Below, piece after piece: positions 945 to 45,592 of a stretch of 47,086 nt of DNA; the first letter of the stretch is position 1; each line of letters opens with the position of its first letter. The position numbers and the translations under genes are program-made. The stretch comes from a phage. The notes beneath the pieces were generated by a model, which made no database searches, was not told the DNA's origin, and was given only the letters and a program-made list of their open reading frames with translations. Location of the stretch: assembly GCA_020364185.1 (NCBI GenBank), contig GCA_020364185.1_4846.1. One strand, 5' to 3'.

Positions 945-1385
945 ATGGCGATGGAGGATATTCCACGGGAGCAGATTGAAGATACCATCAATCTTATTGA
1001 AGAGGAGTTTGAAGGAAAAGCTGAAATGGTCGCTGCTTACATTCGTGAGCTTGAAGCTGATGAAGCTGGACTTAAATCCGAGATTGACCGTCTTTCTGAG
1101 CGTAAGCGTGTTTTAGTTGCGAAGATTGATAACCTTAAAGATTATCTTCGTCAGAACATGATGGCGTCAGGAAAGACAAATATCAAAGGTAAGTTGTTCA
1201 GTATCACTCTTGGCAAAATGTCACCAGTTCTTGATGTGTTTGTCCCTGTTGAACAGCTTCCTGAGCAGTACCGCGTTGTGAAAGTGTCGGCAGATAACGC
1301 AGCAATTAAAAATGCGATAAAAGCCGGGATTGAAATTAAGGGTTGTGCCATCACCGACGGCAAACCAAAACTGATCATCAAATAA
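945..1385 (+). CDS. Gp157-family-like coiled-coil protein (Sak4-associated); start ambiguous (track start 891 overlaps upstream gene)
   Basis: ORF immediately after Sak4-like gene; charged coiled-coil N-terminal half (EEEFEGKAEMVAAYIRELEADEAGLKSEIDRLSERKR); ATG at 945 is first in-frame ATG after upstream stop at 935-937. Confidence 0.45.
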   Translation: MAMEDIPREQIEDTINLIEEEFEGKAEMVAAYIRELEADEAGLKSEIDRLSERKRVLVAKIDNLKDYLRQNMMASGKTNIKGKLFSITLGKMSPVLDVFVPVEQLPEQYRVVKVSADNAAIKNAIKAGIEIKGCAITDGKPKLIIK

Positions 1386-15457: not shown

Positions 15458-16174
15458 TCAGGATACGGTGCAAGCCGTGCTGATGATAATTTCCGGGTCA
15501 GTAGATGAGTCCGTGACCGTGACGGTATACACGCCAGCGGTAGGGCTTGCCAGTGTTGCGCCAGACTCACCACCAACAACTACGCCATCTTTGCGCCATA
15601 CATAAGTGTAAGGAGCGACGCCACCCTCAACAGCAACGGTTAACGGGCTGCCAGTGCTGCCAGTTGATTGCAGGTCGGTAGTGAACGTCAGAGGTTCAAG
15701 GCTTTCTACGGTAACGCTATCTGAATCGTAAACCTTGAACTCAAGGCTGCCGGTTACGATGTCGTTTGTGCCGCCTTCGTAGCTGATGCTGGTAATGTTA
15801 CAGTACGCAGTAACGATAGTCGCGCCAGTTACTTCACGCACCCACAAGGAAGGCTGGCGACGCGCTTTCAGTTCAGTGGCGTAAATCTCAACCAGACGAT
15901 GGAAGCCAAACTCATCGCTAGGGTCATTCTTGCGGATTTCAACCTCTGCGCTGATGGTCATATCAGAGCTGGTAACGAGAGTGGAAACAAAGCCACCAGC
16001 GGTATCCGCTTCCGACGTGGTGGTCTGCGGAGAGTAGTCAACGCCTTTACTGGTGGTTGATCCTAAATACTTCCAGTCTCCTGCTTCCGGAACTGCGTCG
16101 CCGCACCCTTCAGCAAGGAACAGTCGGGTCATGCGACCGACCAGAACGCCTTTATCATTTGCACAAATAGCCAT
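15458..16174 (-). CDS. major tail protein with C-terminal Ig-like domain
   Basis: 238 aa; C-terminal segment PLTVAVEGGVAPYTYVWRKDGVVVGGESGATLASPTAGVYTVTVTD is a typical phage Ig-like domain signature; located upstream of chaperone/TMP as expected. Confidence 0.6.
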   Translation of the reverse strand: MAICANDKGVLVGRMTRLFLAEGCGDAVPEAGDWKYLGSTTSKGVDYSPQTTTSEADTAGGFVSTLVTSSDMTISAEVEIRKNDPSDEFGFHRLVEIYATELKARRQPSLWVREVTGATIVTAYCNITSISYEGGTNDIVTGSLEFKVYDSDSVTVESLEPLTFTTDLQSTGSTGSPLTVAVEGGVAPYTYVWRKDGVVVGGESGATLASPTAGVYTVTVTDSSTDPEIIISTACTVS

Positions 16175-16225
16175 TTCGATCTCCGAATTGTGTTAGCTGC
16201 TAACGTGGTGATTATATCACAGGTG

Positions 16226-16254
16226 TTGACAGTGATTATTTTGTGGTGTAGATT
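16226..16254 (+). promoter_or_regulatory. sigma70-like promoter (TTGACA - 17 bp - TAGATT) heading the tRNA-containing plus-strand unit
   Basis: TTGACA 16226-16231, 17-bp spacer, TAGATT 16249-16254; region homologous to the 14467-14519 promoter cassette. Confidence 0.5.
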
Positions 16255-16520
16255 AAGATTTAACAGAGATTGGCTCCCTGATTTCATTTAATTACATCCA
16301 ATCCTTCAATTACAATTAGCGGTCGAAAGGCGCCGGACGCGTAACCGGCATACAACAGGTAAGAGCATTGGCGCATATCAGCGGAACTCGAACCCATTGC
16401 GCAGGCGACACAGACGTGTGTTTCAGTGTTCTTTCCGTTGTGGTAATGCCATATTGATTATTTGGATAGGTTTGCATCCATTGTTATGCCAGTTTCAGTT
16501 AATCGCGAAACGCCACAACA

Positions 16521-16586
16521 CTTAATATCCAGCATTATCGCAATCATATGTAGGGGTATGTATGGGTTACGGCGCTGGATATTAAG
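16521..16586. repeat. perfect 13-bp inverted repeat (CTTAATATCCAGC / GCTGGATATTAAG) enclosing a 40-nt loop
   Basis: read directly: left arm 16521-16533, right arm 16574-16586, in ORF-free leader upstream of the tRNA. Confidence 0.6.
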
Positions 16587-16620
16587 AAAGCACGCTGGCA
16601 ATGCTTAAACCAGCACTTAT

Positions 16621-16697
16621 GGACGCGTAGCTTAATTGGTTAAAGCAACCGACTCATAATCGGCTGATTGAAGGTTCAAATCCGTCCGTGTCCACCA
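16621..16697 (+). tRNA. tRNA-Met (anticodon CAU; could be initiator/elongator Met or lysidine-modified Ile2)
   Basis: manual fold: 7-bp acceptor stem (one G-U), U8, D-arm GCTT/AAGC with GG in loop, anticodon loop CUCAUAA, T-loop TTCAAAT, discriminator A and encoded CCA; two stem mismatches. Confidence 0.6.
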
Positions 16698-16702
16698 AAT
16701 TA

Positions 16703-16730
16703 AAAGCCGCTTCATGCGGCTTTATTTATT
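16703..16730. terminator. intrinsic terminator after tRNA (also at 3' end of convergent minus gene)
   Basis: AAGCCGC-ttcat-GCGGCTT stem-loop followed by TATTTATTT. Confidence 0.55.
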
Positions 16731-17133
16731 TCACGACCCGCAAAAGCAACTCATGCACAGGCCGCTTCTCTTCCGTCAACATCGGCCTCCCGAGTGGTGC
16801 CTGCAACTGGATGTAGTTAGCGCATGAATCAATCGGATGTGTCTTGATGTATTCGATAATCTCATTGGCTTTATCGTCAACATCCGACACGTTATACTGC
16901 CCATGTTTGCCGACAATATACAATGAGAAATAGAAGTCACCGCCGAGGCCATCCATCACCTGCGTGCCACCATTGGATTGCAGAACAATAAATTGCTCGT
17001 TGCCATCTCCGGTGTCACTCCAGAACTGTAGCTGCGATGTCCAACCATCATACAATCCCGCATCCTGAAGATATGCGTCAACCAGTTCAAGCGTGTTCAT
17101 ATTAAACCCCAATATTGCAATATCGATGCACAT
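16726..17133 (-). CDS. putative tail completion / neck protein; start uncertain (ATG at 17133 or 17100; track start 17142 is GTG)
   Basis: ORF between HK97 gp10-like gene and major tail gene; function by position only. Confidence 0.35.
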   Translation of the reverse strand: MCIDIAILGFNMNTLELVDAYLQDAGLYDGWTSQLQFWSDTGDGNEQFIVLQSNGGTQVMDGLGGDFYFSLYIVGKHGQYNVSDVDDKANEIIEYIKTHPIDSCANYIQLQAPLGRPMLTEEKRPVHELLLRVVK

Positions 17134-17272
17134 ATCATACACTACCTATGTCACGTAGGCGTGGAACCCGAAACGACACACAAGCAACAATGAATTTAAC
17201 GCCCTTGTCAGTATGGTTTTGTTGCAACCATGTTCCACCTGACAGGGGCGTTACCTTTTTGGAGGCGAGTAA

Positions 17273-17764
17273 ATGATTTCAGAGCGTGATTACATAGCAA
17301 TCGCGTCAAGAGTTAAATACGACCCGATTACCGGATTGTTCACCTGGGCTGTAAGTTGCGGGAAAATATCAAAAGGTGATATTGCAAACTATCACAACGA
17401 CGCAGGATACATAACCCTTGGGAAGAAAAGATTAAGGGCGCACCGAGTGGCTTGGTTTATCCATTATGGATATGTCCCTGAGCATGAAATTGATCACATA
17501 AACAATATTCGTGATGACAATAGAATTTCAAATCTGAGGGAGGCCAGTGACTGCGAGAACGCAAGGAACACAAAGATATCTAAATCAAACACGTCTGGAT
17601 ATAAAGGAGTTCATTTTTGCAAGTGCACTGGGAAATGGAGAGCCACGGTAAAGATGCATGGGAAAACCTATCATCTTGGTAGGTTTTCAGACAAAGAAGC
17701 AGCCCATAAAGCCTATTGCAAAAAAGTAGATGAACTGTTTTTGGAGTTCGCAAACCACGGCTAA
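17273..17764 (+). CDS. HNH homing endonuclease with AP2-like DNA-binding domain
   Basis: GGAGG RBS then ATG 17273; motifs RLRAHRVAWFIHYGYVPEHEIDHINNIRDDNRISNLREAS (HNH) and SGYKGVHFCKCTGKWRATVKMHGKTYHLGRFSDKEAAHKAY (AP2-like); opposite strand to surrounding structural genes. Confidence 0.75.
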   Translation: MISERDYIAIASRVKYDPITGLFTWAVSCGKISKGDIANYHNDAGYITLGKKRLRAHRVAWFIHYGYVPEHEIDHINNIRDDNRISNLREASDCENARNTKISKSNTSGYKGVHFCKCTGKWRATVKMHGKTYHLGRFSDKEAAHKAYCKKVDELFLEFANHG

Positions 17765-43262: not shown

Positions 43263-45592
43263 TGATTGGTTATGAAGATTACCGCAAATGTGGCTTCCCT
43301 ATTATTGGAATCCATGCAATGGATATCGACCGCAATTGCACATGCGGTGATCCAGAATGCAATGCTGCCGGTAAGCATCCGGTTATGAGTAACTGGCAGC
43401 TTGGAGTTATATGGGCTGATGACCAGATTGAAAATATGGCTGAATATGGTCAATTGCAGTCATTCGGTGTCCTTGTGAATGGTTATCTGGTAGTTGATAT
43501 TGATCCACGCAACGGAGGTAATGATGGATATGAATCACTTTGTGATGCCTTAGACGTAGAGCTTGCTGACGAAGCTGGCTTTACTGTTAAGACTGGTGGT
43601 GGTGGTCGCCACATCTATTACAAACTTCCTGAAGGAATAAAGCTGCGCTCTCATGACAGAAGGTTTAAGGGTATTGACTTTAAATCATCTGGTTTTGTTG
43701 TTGGCTGCGGCTCATTCCATAAGTCAGGTAACTTTTATGAAGCTGAGCATGGCTCTCCTTCAGAGATAACTGAATGCCCTTCTGAACTTATTGAGCTTTT
43801 GTTGCGTCCTGAGAGAACGGAAGACGAGGTTTTCACGCTTGATAGTAAAAATTACAGCATTGCCGAAATGGAGGATATGCTCAAATACATCAAAGATGGT
43901 GATGAGTATGACCCATGGCTTCATGTGGGCATGGCTATCCACGAAGCTACAGAAGGCAATGGTTTTGAACTTTGGGATAGGTGGTCATCGCAGTTCAGCA
44001 AGTACAGAGCTGAAGAAATGGACGCAAAATGGCATTCCTTTGGAAAGGACGGTGTTAACGAAAAGATAACCGAAGCAACGCTGGTTTATCTCGCGCAAGA
44101 GGGAGGGTGGGTAAGGCAAGTAACTTTTGAGGCTACTCCAGAGGAAATTGAGAAACTTGAGTCTTTCGAACGAGAGATGGCAATGGGTGTTGGTGAATGC
44201 CCTGTAGAGTACAAAAGTGTTGATGTCCGTTATCCGCCTGGATTTGTTGGTCGCCTTACGGCGTGGATTAATAAGAACTGTGCAGAGAAGCGAGAGAATA
44301 TTGCAGCACTTGCTGCATTGCACGCTGCATCCATGATTTGTGGGGCGTCATCTGATATTTATCTTACAAACAGGAAAGCCTTACCAAACCTGTTTGCTGT
44401 TGGTATAGCTGGTTCAGGTTCAGGTAAGGGTGATGTCCTTGCTGCGCTACAAAAGATAATTGATTGCTCAGGATTGAGTAAGACTGTCGCCGGTAAGATA
44501 CGTTCAGAGCGTGCGATATATGAAGGTCTTTGCGCTAACCAGATGTTTAATATCATCATGGATGAGATTGGGATAAAACTTGGGAGTGTTGTTGGTCAGA
44601 AAGTAAGCGAGTACAACATGGCAACCGCTGGTGCGATCATGGAGGCTTACACGTCAGAAGTTCTTTATTGTGACCAGCGGGTTACTGAGGATTTCATTAA
44701 GTCTTTCGAAAAGAGAAAGGCTATGCTGTTGATGGCTATTGAGGAAAATGAGATACAGGCAGACCCCGTTGACATTAAGTGTCAGTTTGATGATGTGATA
44801 AACAGAATTGACGGAGCTATAAGGAATCCATTTTTTTCAATCTTTGGTGTGTCTACTGATGATCAGTTTAAGCGACTTATTACTGAAGAAAACATTAAGT
44901 CAGGTCTTATGGGTCGTGCAATGATTATGCAGGAGTTACAGGAGATTGCTGACGAAAACGAAAACGTCAACTACTGTGATCTACCTATGGATATGCAACT
45001 GACCATAAAAACAATAATAAATGGAGGAACAGCTGGGCACAAAAACTGGACAGACTCAATAATCAGTCAAAAAGAAAGACGGATTATAAAAGCTACGCCT
45101 GAAGTTTCTCAGCTCGCTAAGGAGTTCTTCTCATGGATTAAAACCGTTGCAAGAAAGCATGTAGAAAATGGTACTGGTTATCACCCATTGATAAACAGAT
45201 GCGCCGTGAAGGTGGCAAAGATTGCTGGCATTCTCGCGTGCGATACTGGCGTCATAACCATGGAGCACTTGAGGTATGCGGTAGCATTAACAATTAAATC
45301 AACAAGCGATCTGATGATGCGTGCTGACAGTATCGCCGGAGCGAAGTCTAAAGCTATGGAAGAACGAATTGAAGGTATTTTCTCCATGGTTAAAGAATAT
45401 GTGAAGCGTGGAATGACCAAAACAGCAATGGTTAGAGGGGTAGCAAAAGAAGGTGGGTATAAACGTGCTGATGTCGAGAGGTGCGTAGAGAAGTTGTTAT
45501 CAGATGGTATTATTTGCATTGATGAAAATGCAAAAAGAACATCTCACAACGTAATAATTTACAAATTAACAAATGATGAGGTTGAGATATGA
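43259..45592 (+). CDS. primase-polymerase (AEP-type) replication protein with central P-loop NTPase region
   Basis: 777 aa; N-terminal Prim-Pol-like motifs (VVDIDPRNGG, TVKTGGGGRHIYYKLP, GIDFKSSGFVVGCGSFHKSGNFYE), PriCT-like WLHVGMAIH...LWDRWS, Walker A GIAGSGSGKG. Confidence 0.65.
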   Translation: MMIGYEDYRKCGFPIIGIHAMDIDRNCTCGDPECNAAGKHPVMSNWQLGVIWADDQIENMAEYGQLQSFGVLVNGYLVVDIDPRNGGNDGYESLCDALDVELADEAGFTVKTGGGGRHIYYKLPEGIKLRSHDRRFKGIDFKSSGFVVGCGSFHKSGNFYEAEHGSPSEITECPSELIELLLRPERTEDEVFTLDSKNYSIAEMEDMLKYIKDGDEYDPWLHVGMAIHEATEGNGFELWDRWSSQFSKYRAEEMDAKWHSFGKDGVNEKITEATLVYLAQEGGWVRQVTFEATPEEIEKLESFEREMAMGVGECPVEYKSVDVRYPPGFVGRLTAWINKNCAEKRENIAALAALHAASMICGASSDIYLTNRKALPNLFAVGIAGSGSGKGDVLAALQKIIDCSGLSKTVAGKIRSERAIYEGLCANQMFNIIMDEIGIKLGSVVGQKVSEYNMATAGAIMEAYTSEVLYCDQRVTEDFIKSFEKRKAMLLMAIEENEIQADPVDIKCQFDDVINRIDGAIRNPFFSIFGVSTDDQFKRLITEENIKSGLMGRAMIMQELQEIADENENVNYCDLPMDMQLTIKTIINGGTAGHKNWTDSIISQKERRIIKATPEVSQLAKEFFSWIKTVARKHVENGTGYHPLINRCAVKVAKIAGILACDTGVITMEHLRYAVALTIKSTSDLMMRADSIAGAKSKAMEERIEGIFSMVKEYVKRGMTKTAMVRGVAKEGGYKRADVERCVEKLLSDGIICIDENAKRTSHNVIIYKLTNDEVEI

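Follow-up and report, generated by a model that had tools for sequence, protein, structure and literature searches.

In the window, by which we mean the whole 47,086-nt stretch of phage DNA analyzed here (GenBank assembly GCA_020364185.1, contig GCA_020364185.1_4846.1), an ORF-free gap at 16175-16725 between two minus-strand tail genes very probably holds a plus-strand unit with its own promoter, in which a structured RNA of a lambda-type family is joined to a tRNA. Judged by its sequence, the RNA core at 16332-16519 represents a modular RNA element of Enterobacterales phages and prophages; this module is widespread, yet it has neither an Rfam family nor an annotation in the records inspected. 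The fuller proposal, that this own-promoter non-coding unit of structured RNA and tRNA acts as a processing and stability scaffold, we put at a little below an even chance.

The original prediction, made from the letters of the window, described the gap as free of ORFs of at least 60 aa on both strands, and the ORF list bears this out; the longest ORFs there are of 53 aa (16316-16477, minus), 52 aa (16129-16287, minus, partly outside the gap), and 48 aa. Every feature listed in that prediction is present (Table 1), and its interpretation stands as far as a real tRNA with its own promoter and terminator and a structured leader are concerned, whereas tRNA-Met is probably not the right identity, the hairpin it named is one of several conserved elements, and the recombination it considered was not demonstrated. 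A micro-ORF within the leader is probably no conserved peptide; its codon 6 varies (R, G, or S) among relatives, and we rejected a leader peptide because a 1-nt insertion in relative L090 breaks the frame.

Table 1. Features in and around the ORF-free gap of the window
Feature	Position	Strand	Sequence or structure	Basis or remark
Major tail protein gene	15458-16174	minus		Left flank of gap
Sigma-70-type promoter	16226-16254	+	TTGACA (16226-16231), 17-nt spacer, TAGATT (16249-16254)	10/12 matches
AU-rich 5′ segment	16261-16331	+	Ends in mini-hairpin GUC-GAAA-GGC (16322-16331, GNRA-type loop)	Read from sequence
Hairpin H0	16332-16349	+	GCCGG (16332-16336)/CCGGC (16345-16349), loop ACGCGUAA	Position conserved
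Lambda-type long stem	16351-16442	+	About 20 bp, UACAAC...GUUGUG	Covariance model R1
Long stem, 5′ arm	16351-16370	+	UACAAC-A-GGUAAGAGCAUUG	
Hypervariable insert V1	16371-16423	+	Caps the long stem	
Long stem, 3′ arm	16424-16442	+	CAGUGUUCUUUCC-GUUGUG	
Domain 2	16437-16519	+	83 nt; closing helix GUUGUGG (16437-16443)/CCACAAC (16513-16519)	
Domain 2, T-arm-positioned hairpin	16492-16511	+	GUUUC (16492-16496)/GAAAC (16507-16511), loop AGUUAAUCGC	
Domain 3	16521-16586	+	Perfect 13-bp hairpin 16521-16533/16574-16586 around 40-nt loop	
Domain 3, inner hairpin	16544-16552/16557-16565	+	9 bp, GGGG loop (16553-16556)	
Micro-ORF	16558-16608	+	16 codons (MYGLRRWILRKHAGNA) behind AGGGG Shine-Dalgarno-like motif	Read from sequence
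Short hairpin directly 5′ of tRNA	16594-16614	+	GCUGG/CCAGC	RNAalifold consensus, 9 relatives
tRNA	16621-16697	+	Anticodon CAU (CAT in DNA), CCA encoded	ARAGORN; Rfam RF00005
Intrinsic terminator	16703-16723	+	AAAGCCGC-UUCAU-GCGGCUUU, then T run	8-bp stem
Tail terminator gene	16726-17142	minus		Pfam PF23842, E=2e-39

The promoter had been proposed at the position given in Table 1, and although a promoter scan alone is at chance level (1 found versus 1.8 expected), both hexamers are kept in relatives; they are identical in L001-L006 and are also kept in L023 despite a different spacer. Transcription would start near 16261. The terminator expected after the tRNA is likewise there, and a terminator scan alone is also at chance level (1 found versus 1.4 expected); the stem is kept in relatives except for single mismatches (Bas80 and Skate), and the loop varies. 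It could work on the minus strand too, where UUUUAAUUU follows the stem. The 465-nt transcript is more stable than shuffled sequences (folding z = -2.6) and so is the opposite strand (z = -3.7); both strands fold well, and folding energy therefore cannot assign the strand.

The most informative structural element of the leader is the lambda-type long stem, which had been missed by the original prediction. We defined a stem module with a CACAAC/GUUGUG base, a bulged A, an upper helix of about 13 bp with a U·G wobble, and a variable cap, and its covariance model, R1, includes the window copy in its training alignment. That copy shows all of these features, and as a member of the training set it scores 35.8 bits (E=2.7e-7) on the plus strand and 15.9 bits on the minus strand; elsewhere, the lambda copy scores 45.3 bits and three copies in the P1 ban operon score 28.9-39.7 bits, with the plus strand above the minus strand by 7.8-20 bits in every copy. 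The 19 register positions of the window stem comprise 18 standard pairs and the U·U mismatch of the family, together with one bulged A (16357) and the conserved U·G wobble; at the base of the stem, U16351·G16442 is also a wobble pair.

Compensatory changes support this helix. Across 65 distinct copies, 92.9% of cells pair and compensatory changes are seen at 15 of 21 pairs, values reached by none of 500 shuffles, while slid controls pair at 33-57%; these pairing statistics are inflated, in that the divergent copies were gathered by a search requiring complementarity. In these divergent copies the helix reaches a perfect 20 bp, as in GUUGAGAACACUGG/CCAGUGUUCUCAAC, and where the base of the stem changes to CACAGC, the strand in the GUUGUG position reads GCUGUG and complementarity is kept. 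U·G occupies the wobble position in 54 of the 65 copies, with G on the 3′ arm, and from the G·U pairs we conclude that the functional strand is the plus strand. The insert V1, in contrast to the arms, is hypervariable, with 95 versions among 139 copies and lengths of 30-230 nt; the V1 of the window has no match in any other copy, and T-loop motifs in V1 across copies number 11 in sense and none in antisense.

The module is spread across lambda, P1, 9NA/Sasha-like phages, E1-like phages, and prophages of many enteric genera, and a near-exact 18-mer is conserved from Yersinia prophages to lambda. Its motif ACAACAGGTAAGAGCATT occurs in more than 120 IMG/VR viral contigs, in prophages of many Enterobacterales genera (Salmonella among them), and, without annotation, in 989 of 5,426 complete Escherichia coli genomes. 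In the lambda prophage of BL21(DE3) the module begins between Q and S, 8 nt past tR′; three copies lie in the P1 ban operon, and it is present in Sashavirus phages. Scanned with Rfam up to E = 10, 16175-16620 has no hit that reaches any gathering score, and the sole overlap is snoZ103 (15.6 bits, gathering score 44, E=9.3). Searches of 17 related loci (E up to 5 or gathering) returned nothing at or beside the module except tRNAs and one isrJ, and GOLLD, ROOL, YrlA, and AgvB were all without a match to the leader. The lambda GenBank records have no feature for the module, it is unannotated in all other records inspected, and a full-text literature search for the arm sequences found no paper.

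It had been suggested that the leader might encode an additional small RNA or a processing structure, and a multi-domain structured RNA of about 360 nt is what we found. Its AU-rich 5′ segment is common to the window, Sashavirus Sergei, and L019, and the mini-hairpin at its end reads GUC-GAGA-GAC or GUC-GAAA-GAC in relatives, with a U-A pair at the position of the U·G. A kissing pairing of a CUCC loop (at about 16274) with the GGGG loop was dropped because the CUCC loop changes in relatives. Hairpin H0 ends 1 nt (A16350) upstream of the long stem; a hairpin of at least 5 bp is found at this position in 45 of 95 distinct contexts, compared with 10.6 in shuffles, and the stems covary (GCCUG/CAGGC, GCUGG/CCAGC, GCCAC/GUGGC, and others). 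The first nine nucleotides of the tRNA had been reported to recur in the leader, and they do, with GGACGCGTA at 16335-16343 and 16621-16629, although the first position had been placed one base off; the leader copy falls inside H0. By our own arithmetic about 0.09 shared 9-mers are expected between a 77-nt tRNA and a 360-nt leader, and the repeat is thus weak on its own. A remnant of tRNA-associated recombination, as had been proposed, was not demonstrated, the repeat lying in a hairpin of conserved position; the stem-module family as a whole looks as if assembled from tRNA-like pieces.

On the other side of the stem, domain 2 is closed by at least 7 bp in 73 of 134 copies, against 2.5 in shuffles. 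Closure was counted as Watson-Crick pairs only, since a test allowing G·U had a very high background from the GU-rich strand. An adjacent hairpin in the T-arm position is present in 41 of 54 distinct domains 2; that of the window ends 1 nt before the 3′ closing strand, and in L015 the hairpin is GUCUC/GAGAC, a compensatory change. With H0 upstream and a closed domain 2 with its adjacent hairpin downstream, the flanking architecture of the window fits the module. The perfect 13-bp inverted repeat that had been singled out, which forms domain 3, is indeed 100% complementary with its arms 40 nt apart, but it is just one of at least four conserved structural elements. Its 40-nt loop is nearly invariant among relatives, the domain has two compensatory pairs in L090, changes to G·U in Skate and Akira, and one broken pair in L127, and its GGGG-loop hairpin is also found in Sashavirus Sergei. 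The short hairpin directly 5′ of the tRNA is almost invariant, so covariation speaks neither for nor against it.

The module is linked to tRNA genes. Same-strand tRNAs lie within 600 nt of 25 of 132 motif copies, where the tRNA density of the loci gives a rough expectation of about 3. A real tRNA begins directly after GUUGUG in L014, L093, and L029, a tRNA-Thr ends 3 nt before ACAAC in L010, L013, and L123, and in other phages the slot of the second domain holds either a tRNA-like domain or a genuine tRNA. Bas78 (L006) and L015 lack a tRNA and keep the RNA and the terminator, with the promoter also kept in Bas78; since tRNA-less relatives keep the RNA, it is a unit of its own.

ARAGORN and an Rfam covariance-model scan agree on the tRNA-like gene with a CAU anticodon and an encoded CCA that had been described (RF00005, 63.4 bits against a gathering score of 29, E=3.6e-13). 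The accompanying label of tRNA-Met, however, is probably wrong: from its sequence this is most likely a tRNA-Ile2, which would decode AUA after lysidine modification. All 174 of the 174 E. coli matches listed or counted are annotated as tRNA-Ile, and the block CGACUCAUAAUCG is common to the window tRNA, ileX, and P1 trnI. Read from the sequence, the tRNA has C4-G69, U12-A23, C29-G41, and A73, reportedly the identity set of IleRS. The acceptor-stem determinants of TilS are said to be C4-G69 and C5-G68, and of these the window tRNA has C4-G69, whereas its 5-68 pair is G·U, not C-G. Skate carries the same tRNA gene with an AAU anticodon. An initiator tRNA-fMet would show a C1·A72 mismatch and, at the base of its anticodon stem, three G-C pairs, and this identity was rejected; G1-C72 is paired, and the anticodon stem is ACCGA/UCGGC, with no initiator hallmarks. 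Overall identity to elongator tRNA-Met and to ileX is similar (59/81 aligned columns versus 56/77), and the anticodon fits; the pairs that discriminate Met-type from Ile-type bodies are Ile-type here, with E. coli metT presumably having U4-A69 and U29-A41, a Met-type body. AUA makes up 13.2 per 1,000 codons and 19% of Ile codons in the window ORFs, about three times the E. coli usage of this rare isoleucine codon.

In the explanation that we favor, host RNA polymerase would read the unit on the plus strand, antisense to the flanking tail genes, from the sigma-70 promoter through about 360 nt of multi-domain RNA and the tRNA(CAU) to the intrinsic terminator, and the tRNA, probably tRNA-Ile2, would supply AUA decoding. 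The module has three parts, a short hairpin followed by a single A; a stem of about 20 bp, CACAAC-A-GGUAAGAGCAUUG ... CAGUGCUCUUUCC-GUUGUG, under the hypervariable insert, which may have a role of its own; and a second domain with a GUUGUGG/CCACAAC closure and a hairpin in the position of a tRNA T arm. We propose that it could be a scaffold on which polycistronic non-coding transcripts are processed and stabilized. Its long double-stranded stem would offer an RNase III-type site, RNase P and 3′ trimming enzymes would act on the tRNA and the tRNA-like parts, and the primary transcript would yield defined structure-protected pieces, the mature tRNA being one of them. Extensive folding would, in addition, protect a long RNA that is not translated from Rho and RNase E. 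To our knowledge RNase III requires no conserved sequence, and the near-exact 18-mer therefore points to some sequence-specific partner, which the scaffold model does not name. With 19 stacked positions and one bulge, the stem has the geometry of an RNase III substrate (about two turns of double-stranded RNA), and cleavage itself is predicted; the subject of Daniels et al. (1988, cited in PMC7547250) is in vivo RNase III processing sites in the Q-dependent late RNA of lambda. The hexamer GUUGUG belongs to two covariation-supported, mutually exclusive helices, the long stem and the closure of domain 2, a dual use that the scaffold model leaves unexplained.

A different function, which we regard as unlikely, is that the module imitates the acceptor end of a tRNA and is not a processing signal; with the insert removed, the end of the stem would show a G·U at about the third pair, as an Ala acceptor does. 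The RNA might be a decoy or sponge for host tRNA-binding enzymes or tRNA-cleaving defense nucleases, or copies with a tag template might be part of a two-piece tmRNA-like RNA, and our estimate covers both variants jointly. Such mimicry is suggested by a 10-codon frame ahead of the stem in the sister phages Bas80, Akira, and Bas78 and in many prophages. The frame lies 111-311 nt ahead of the stem in 22 of 23 copies, most often about 112 nt, and has 14 nucleotide versions, all of them SsrA-like (ANDDVVLMAA, ANEEMYLAVA, ANDEQFLAVA, and others), with synonymous changes in Ala codons. The Rfam model tmRNA_permuted scores 27.9 bits over the tag region of the sister loci (E=8e-4), a value below gathering; domain 2 of Skate, Akira, and L117 has D-arm-like and T-arm-like parts, and the sense-only enrichment of T-loop motifs in V1 and the conserved wobble with G on the 3′ arm also fit. 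However, no tag-frame motif was found in the window, nor a canonical T-loop in its V1 or domain 2, the acceptor-like helix of domain 2 has U3-A70 and not G3·U70, and CCA follows inconsistently. ARAGORN finds no tmRNA, E. coli ssrA shares just 8-9-nt words with Bas80, Akira, and the window in BLAST, and a 20-bp stem exceeds the 12-bp acceptor/T minihelix. We are as doubtful about the more general proposal that the cassette belongs to an unrecognized, horizontally shuffled phage RNA family built on tRNA/tmRNA mimicry, with a sequence-conserved stem with an Ala-acceptor-like G·U wobble as universal scaffold, exchangeable cargo in the cap and the tRNA-like slot (in sister phages an SsrA-like tag template), and tag-less copies such as those of the window and lambda acting as decoys or adaptors toward host factors that handle or cleave tRNAs. 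If true, the tag-carrying sisters would run their own two-piece tmRNA-like tagging or subvert host trans-translation.

The mosaicism of the locus raises the prospect, in our judgment decidedly unlikely, that the leader is a patchwork of decayed tRNA-gene fragments, with arms kept as DNA homology patches for cassette exchange and an RNA that would have no role beyond tRNA carriage. Close relatives do differ by swaps exactly at the conserved arms, identical V1 cassettes recur in different contexts amid the many V1 versions counted above, and the arm sequence is near-exact across unrelated phages. Debris of this kind is nevertheless hard to square with helices maintained by compensatory changes, and the G·U-compatible changes and the strand asymmetry of the scores imply selection on one RNA strand. 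Moreover, the element persists with promoter and terminator where the tRNA is lost, and the domain 3 loop hardly varies.

The flanking tail genes lie on the opposite strand, and the plus-strand RNA could therefore tune them; either this RNA or convergent transcription with a two-way terminator might adjust read-through into the major tail gene or trigger double-stranded RNA cleavage of the late mRNA. Gene order and strands fit such antisense regulation, no sigma-70-like minus-strand promoter for the tail gene was found in 15900-17000, a U-rich run follows the terminator stem on both strands, and the minus strand folds stably too. We nonetheless consider it very unlikely, as the module stands in sense orientation within the late operons of lambda and Sashavirus and the P1 ban operon, so that antisense placement is no property of the family. 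Finally, that the gap codes for short minus-strand proteins akin to Skate genes 053-055, Bas80_0055, and Bas80_0056 is almost certainly wrong: the window has minus-strand ORFs of 37-53 aa, and Skate, Bas80, and Bas78 annotate hypothetical proteins in the gap, but relatives do not conserve the ORFs, no gene is called in Akira, where the Bas80_0056 region carries a 1-nt indel, several other relatives leave the gap unannotated, and plus-strand RNA helices account for the substitutions.

Annotation usually treats phage tRNA genes as isolated features, whereas the tRNA described here forms the end of a larger conserved RNA. A family model would clear spurious small ORF calls, such as P1 plp and upl and Skate 053-055, and would assign a role open to testing to a part of the lambda late leader that has no annotated or published function that we could find. 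It would also provide a natural RNA-expression scaffold with a freely exchangeable insert, and the SsrA-like tag templates in sister loci, if functional, raise the question of phage-directed protein tagging.

Several known RNAs resemble parts of this unit. Long double-stranded stems and tRNAs punctuate untranslated polycistronic RNA in the leader-trailer stems of rRNA operons and in the precursors of the T4 tRNA cluster; the stem of the module differs from these in being local, a hairpin over an insert of 30-230 nt, and in being conserved in sequence. The usual 3′ arm of the module, UGCUCUUU, resembles boxA, although the boxA-like string is lost in divergent copies. In tmRNA and two-piece tmRNA, the likeness is to sister loci, which have the 10-codon tag frame in a tmRNA-like context (AUAAAU-GCA-AAC-GA...) and a tmRNA-like order of tag frame, then stem, and sometimes a tRNA-like domain; for the window we rejected a tmRNA, as there is no tag frame, no acceptor with G3·U70 and CCA, no ARAGORN call, and no Rfam tmRNA hit.

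Y RNAs of the YrlA type, known from Salmonella and some phages, pair a helix with a tRNA-like module (Chen et al. 2014; PMC4201824); YrlA adjoins rsr, encoding Ro60, and contains a permuted tRNA-like domain whose D and T arms are canonical (PMC4201824). The YrlA motif GNCGAAN0-1G is fitted by GUCGAAAG at 16322-16329 of the window, but at this site relatives read GUCGAGAA, GUCGAGAG, and GUCGAUAG, and conservation thus does not extend to the GAA core. A TROVE domain is absent from the 10 window proteins scanned, including seven larger ones (393-777 aa), and no T-loop motif was found in the window leader. With the motif unconserved, no rsr product among those proteins, a different topology, and no Rfam hit, YrlA was rejected. 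The EHEC prophage anti-sRNAs AgvB and AsxR (Tree et al. 2014; PMC4104026) share the niche of the module, an insertion site downstream of PR′, and both they and the module have CACAACA, which matches the GcvB R1 seed target consensus. AgvB (RF02702) is, unlike the module, a 51-60-nt Hfq-binding sRNA, and it was rejected in spite of the shared CACAACA, there being no Rfam AgvB hit at or next to the module.

The closest counterparts are copies of the module itself. In the P1 ban operon (dicF-like region, trnA, trnT, and trnI), tRNAs are interleaved with three same-strand stem copies, partly under the antisense ORFs annotated plp and upl, and a tRNA-Ile2(CAU) is present, as is probably the case in the window; P1 differs in having several modules, three tRNAs, and the protein genes tciABC and ban in one C1-controlled operon. 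The best-studied copy is in the late leader of lambda (PR′ - 6S RNA/tR′ - S), directly after tR′, where the same long stem with nearly the same sequence occupies lambda 44787-44862 and is followed by a domain closed by GUUGUGCUG/CAGCACAAC, a counterpart of domain 2 of the window, although the variable insert and the contents of domain 2 are unrelated. In lambda the copy sits in the leader of a Q-antiterminated mRNA, oriented as the lysis genes are and without a tRNA, whereas that of the window is served by a sigma-70 promoter of its own, is followed by a tRNA and a terminator, and runs antisense to its neighbors.

The ORF-free gap between the major tail protein and tail terminator genes of this E1/swi2/C1/SeSz-2-like siphophage of E. 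coli and Salmonella (Escherichia phage vB_EcoS_swi2 is ~90% identical over 24 kb) holds a tRNA gene that we class as ordinary and, ahead of it, a structured leader RNA. An ORF scan of the region bears out the absence of any ORF of at least 60 aa, and scans recover the promoter and terminator of the original prediction. Taken alone these scans are no better than chance, but both elements are supported by conservation in relatives: locus L023 (L numbers denote related loci) keeps both promoter hexamers despite an altered spacer, and the terminator stem is mostly kept while its loop varies. The nearby HNH-AP2 gene, ~550 nt from the RNA cassette, lies on the strand opposite to the surrounding tail genes, and Akira and 64795_sal3 carry it at the same place.

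Features of the RNA cassette, its flanks and a sister locus
Feature	Position	Strand	Remark
Major tail protein gene	15458-16174	minus	One flank of the cassette
Promoter	16226-16254	+	TTGACA-17-TAGATT
H0 hairpin	16332-16349	+	
Long stem	16351-16442	+	
Domain 2	16437-16519	+	
13-bp inverted repeat, domain 3	16521-16533 / 16574-16586	+	Perfect
tRNA gene	16621-16697	+	Anticodon CAU, CCA encoded
Terminator	16703-16723	+	
Tail terminator gene	16726-17142	minus	Other flank; Pfam PF23842, E=2e-39
HNH-AP2 endonuclease gene	17273-17764	+	Homing-endonuclease-like; next after tail terminator gene
10-codon tag frame	L004 (Bas80) 1145-1180		

One module plan recurs across copies of the leader, with a hairpin, an A, a ~20-bp stem (CACAAC-A-GGUAAGAGCAUUG ... 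CAGUGCUCUUUCC-GUUGUG) and a second domain; PSH-1, Bas78, L123 and L127 have tandem modules. The stem is capped by a variable segment, V1, of 31-226 nt, with 95 versions among 139 copies. In an alignment of 65 distinct arm pairs, 92.9% of cells are paired and 15 of 21 stem pairs show compensatory changes, values reached by none of 500 shuffles and compared with 33-57% pairing in slid-register controls, with the caveat that the divergent copies were gathered by a search requiring complementarity. These divergent copies form perfect helices from different sequences, and the base hexamer covaries (CACAGC/GCUGUG, CACAAU/AUUGUG, ACUAUC/GAUAGU). A covariance model from this alignment, which includes the window copy, scores that copy at 35.8 bits (E=2.7e-7) and found no second one in the window; it prefers the + strand by 7.8-20 bits in every copy. 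The same strand is indicated by a U·G wobble, present at one stem position in 54 of the 65 copies. T-loop motifs in V1 number 11 sense and 0 antisense (~0.5 expected). The usual 3′ arm, UGCUCUUU(C/A), is similar to the boxA element found in rrn operons and in lambda nut sites; this string is missing from divergent copies, and the window has UGUUCUUU at 16424-16436 instead. An insert in the L108 stem (stem start 1208) has a hammerhead-like core, GCGCGC-CUGACGAG-UCC..GGA-CGAAAC-GC..GC-GUC-GCGCG, with no Rfam hammerhead call at the gathering threshold.

The predicted nine-nucleotide repeat is present, with GGACGCGTA at 16335-16343 and again at 16621-16629. It contains the palindrome ACGCGU (16337-16342 and 16623-16628), so the H0 loop matches tRNA nucleotides 3-8 in sequence and is also complementary to them. 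Of 95 contexts, 45 have a 5-6-bp hairpin ending one nucleotide (A) ahead of the stem, whereas shuffles yield 10.6. Domain 2 has a closing strand Watson-Crick complementary to GUUGUGG(NN) in 73 of 134 copies (2.5 expected), and a short hairpin abuts its 3′ closing strand in 41 of 54 distinct domains, placed as the T-arm is against the acceptor strand of a tRNA. In Skate, Akira and L117, domain 2 contains D-arm and T-arm sequences and is clearly tRNA-like, and in L014, L093 and L029 the second slot is a real tRNA beginning directly past GUUGUG.

The 13-bp hairpin of domain 3, perfect as predicted, is restricted to E1-like phages; it has two compensatory pairs in L090, substitutions giving G·U in Skate and Akira, and one broken pair in L127. 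Its 40-nt loop is nearly invariant and includes a 9-bp inner hairpin with a GGGG loop, also present in Sergei. AGGGG-AUG in this loop opens a 16-codon ORF, which we do not take for a conserved peptide because L090 has a frame-breaking 1-nt insertion in it. Bas78 and L015 keep the RNA without the tRNA, with a terminator directly 3′ of the short hairpin, which points to a leader RNA independent of the tRNA. Close relatives differ from one another in mosaic fashion at this locus, with the conserved arms as exchange points.

The family extends well beyond these phages. A 52-nt leader segment (16320-16371) matches an ORF-free gap of the unrelated Sashavirus Sergei, a gap equipped with a promoter-like site and a terminator of its own. 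The 18-mer ACAACAGGTAAGAGCATT is found in >120 IMG/VR contigs, in prophages of Serratia, Yersinia, Pectobacterium, Klebsiella, Pantoea, Erwinia, Citrobacter and others, and in 989 of 5426 complete E. coli genomes, annotated in none. The BL21(DE3) match is phage lambda, between Q and S and starting 8 nt past tR′; although this copy was sequenced long ago, the family has, as far as we found, never been described. Three stem copies surround trnA and trnT in the P1 ban operon, and the P1 ORFs plp and upl, downstream of trnT (L130 2401-2970; P1 69472-70041), are antisense to two stem copies and may be spurious gene calls. Non-enteric matches (Pseudomonas, Shewanella, Oceanobacillus, Bacteroidales bins and others) are on ~48.4-kb contigs or tiny low-coverage ones (L136, L166, L177, several short) and probably reflect assemblies contaminated with lambda DNA.

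Many prophages, and Bas80, Akira and Bas78, have a 10-codon frame 111-311 nt ahead of the stem, most often ~112 nt (L004-L006, L017-L019, L023, L031, L042, L044, L057, L070, L088, L090, L096, L103 and L117); it is absent from the window. All 14 nucleotide versions code for an SsrA-like tag (such as ANDDVVLMAA, ANDDVILMAA, ANDDLMLMAA, ANEEMYLAVA and ANDEQFLAVA), with synonymous variation of Ala codons and tmRNA-like context upstream. Rfam tmRNA_permuted scores 27.9 bits over the tag region (E=8e-4), under the gathering threshold, and ARAGORN called no tmRNA at these loci. L019 joins a window-type 5′ hairpin to the tag module.

The tRNA gene has the CAU anticodon and encoded CCA as predicted, but it is probably not tRNA-Met; ARAGORN labels it Met because of the anticodon, and several features argue for a predicted tRNA-Ile2. 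It has C4-G69, U12-A23, C29-G41 and A73, which form the IleRS identity set; the E. coli Met tRNA has other pairs at positions 4-69 and 29-41. A 13-nt block of the phage tRNA, CGACUCAUAAUCG, is also found in ileX and P1 trnI (annotated Ile2), its E. coli matches are all annotated tRNA-Ile, and initiator features sought in it are absent. The ortholog in Salmonella phage Skate (L001 2073-2149), annotated tRNA-Ile, has anticodon AAU through a single C-to-A change. AUA makes up 13.2 per 1000 codons and 19% of Ile codons in the window's long ORFs, ~3x the host level. Rare codons are common overall (AGA, 8.0 per 1000), and this is the phage's sole tRNA despite frequent AUA and AGA codons; AUA is absent from major tail and major capsid-size genes and reaches 17-27 per 1000 in helicase, primase and tail fibre-size genes. 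In 64795_sal3 and Akira the tRNA ends in CGCGUCA-A-CCA, giving a G1·A72 mismatch and a weaker T stem, and these tRNAs may be decaying or altered.

Neither YrlA nor AgvB, both tried as identities of the leader, fits. The leader matches no Rfam family and we found no paper with its arm sequences in published full text, and we therefore file it as a variant structured phage leader/tRNA-operon RNA. We favor a processing and stability scaffold, in which RNase III would cleave the long stem, RNase P and 3′ trimming enzymes would act on the tRNA and tRNA-like parts, and tight folding would protect a long untranslated RNA; the one outside support for this scaffold model is the title of Daniels et al. 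1988, which reports that lambda late RNA is processed by RNase III. A simple scaffold fits poorly with the almost exact conservation of the arms, with the conserved U·G wobble, and with GUUGUG being common to two mutually exclusive helices; these points leave room for a mimicry or decoy role. An isrJ sRNA match in L074 (2710-2786, 60.2 bits) ends just ahead of the stem module, which there follows a terminated short RNA, much as the lambda module follows 6S RNA and tR′.
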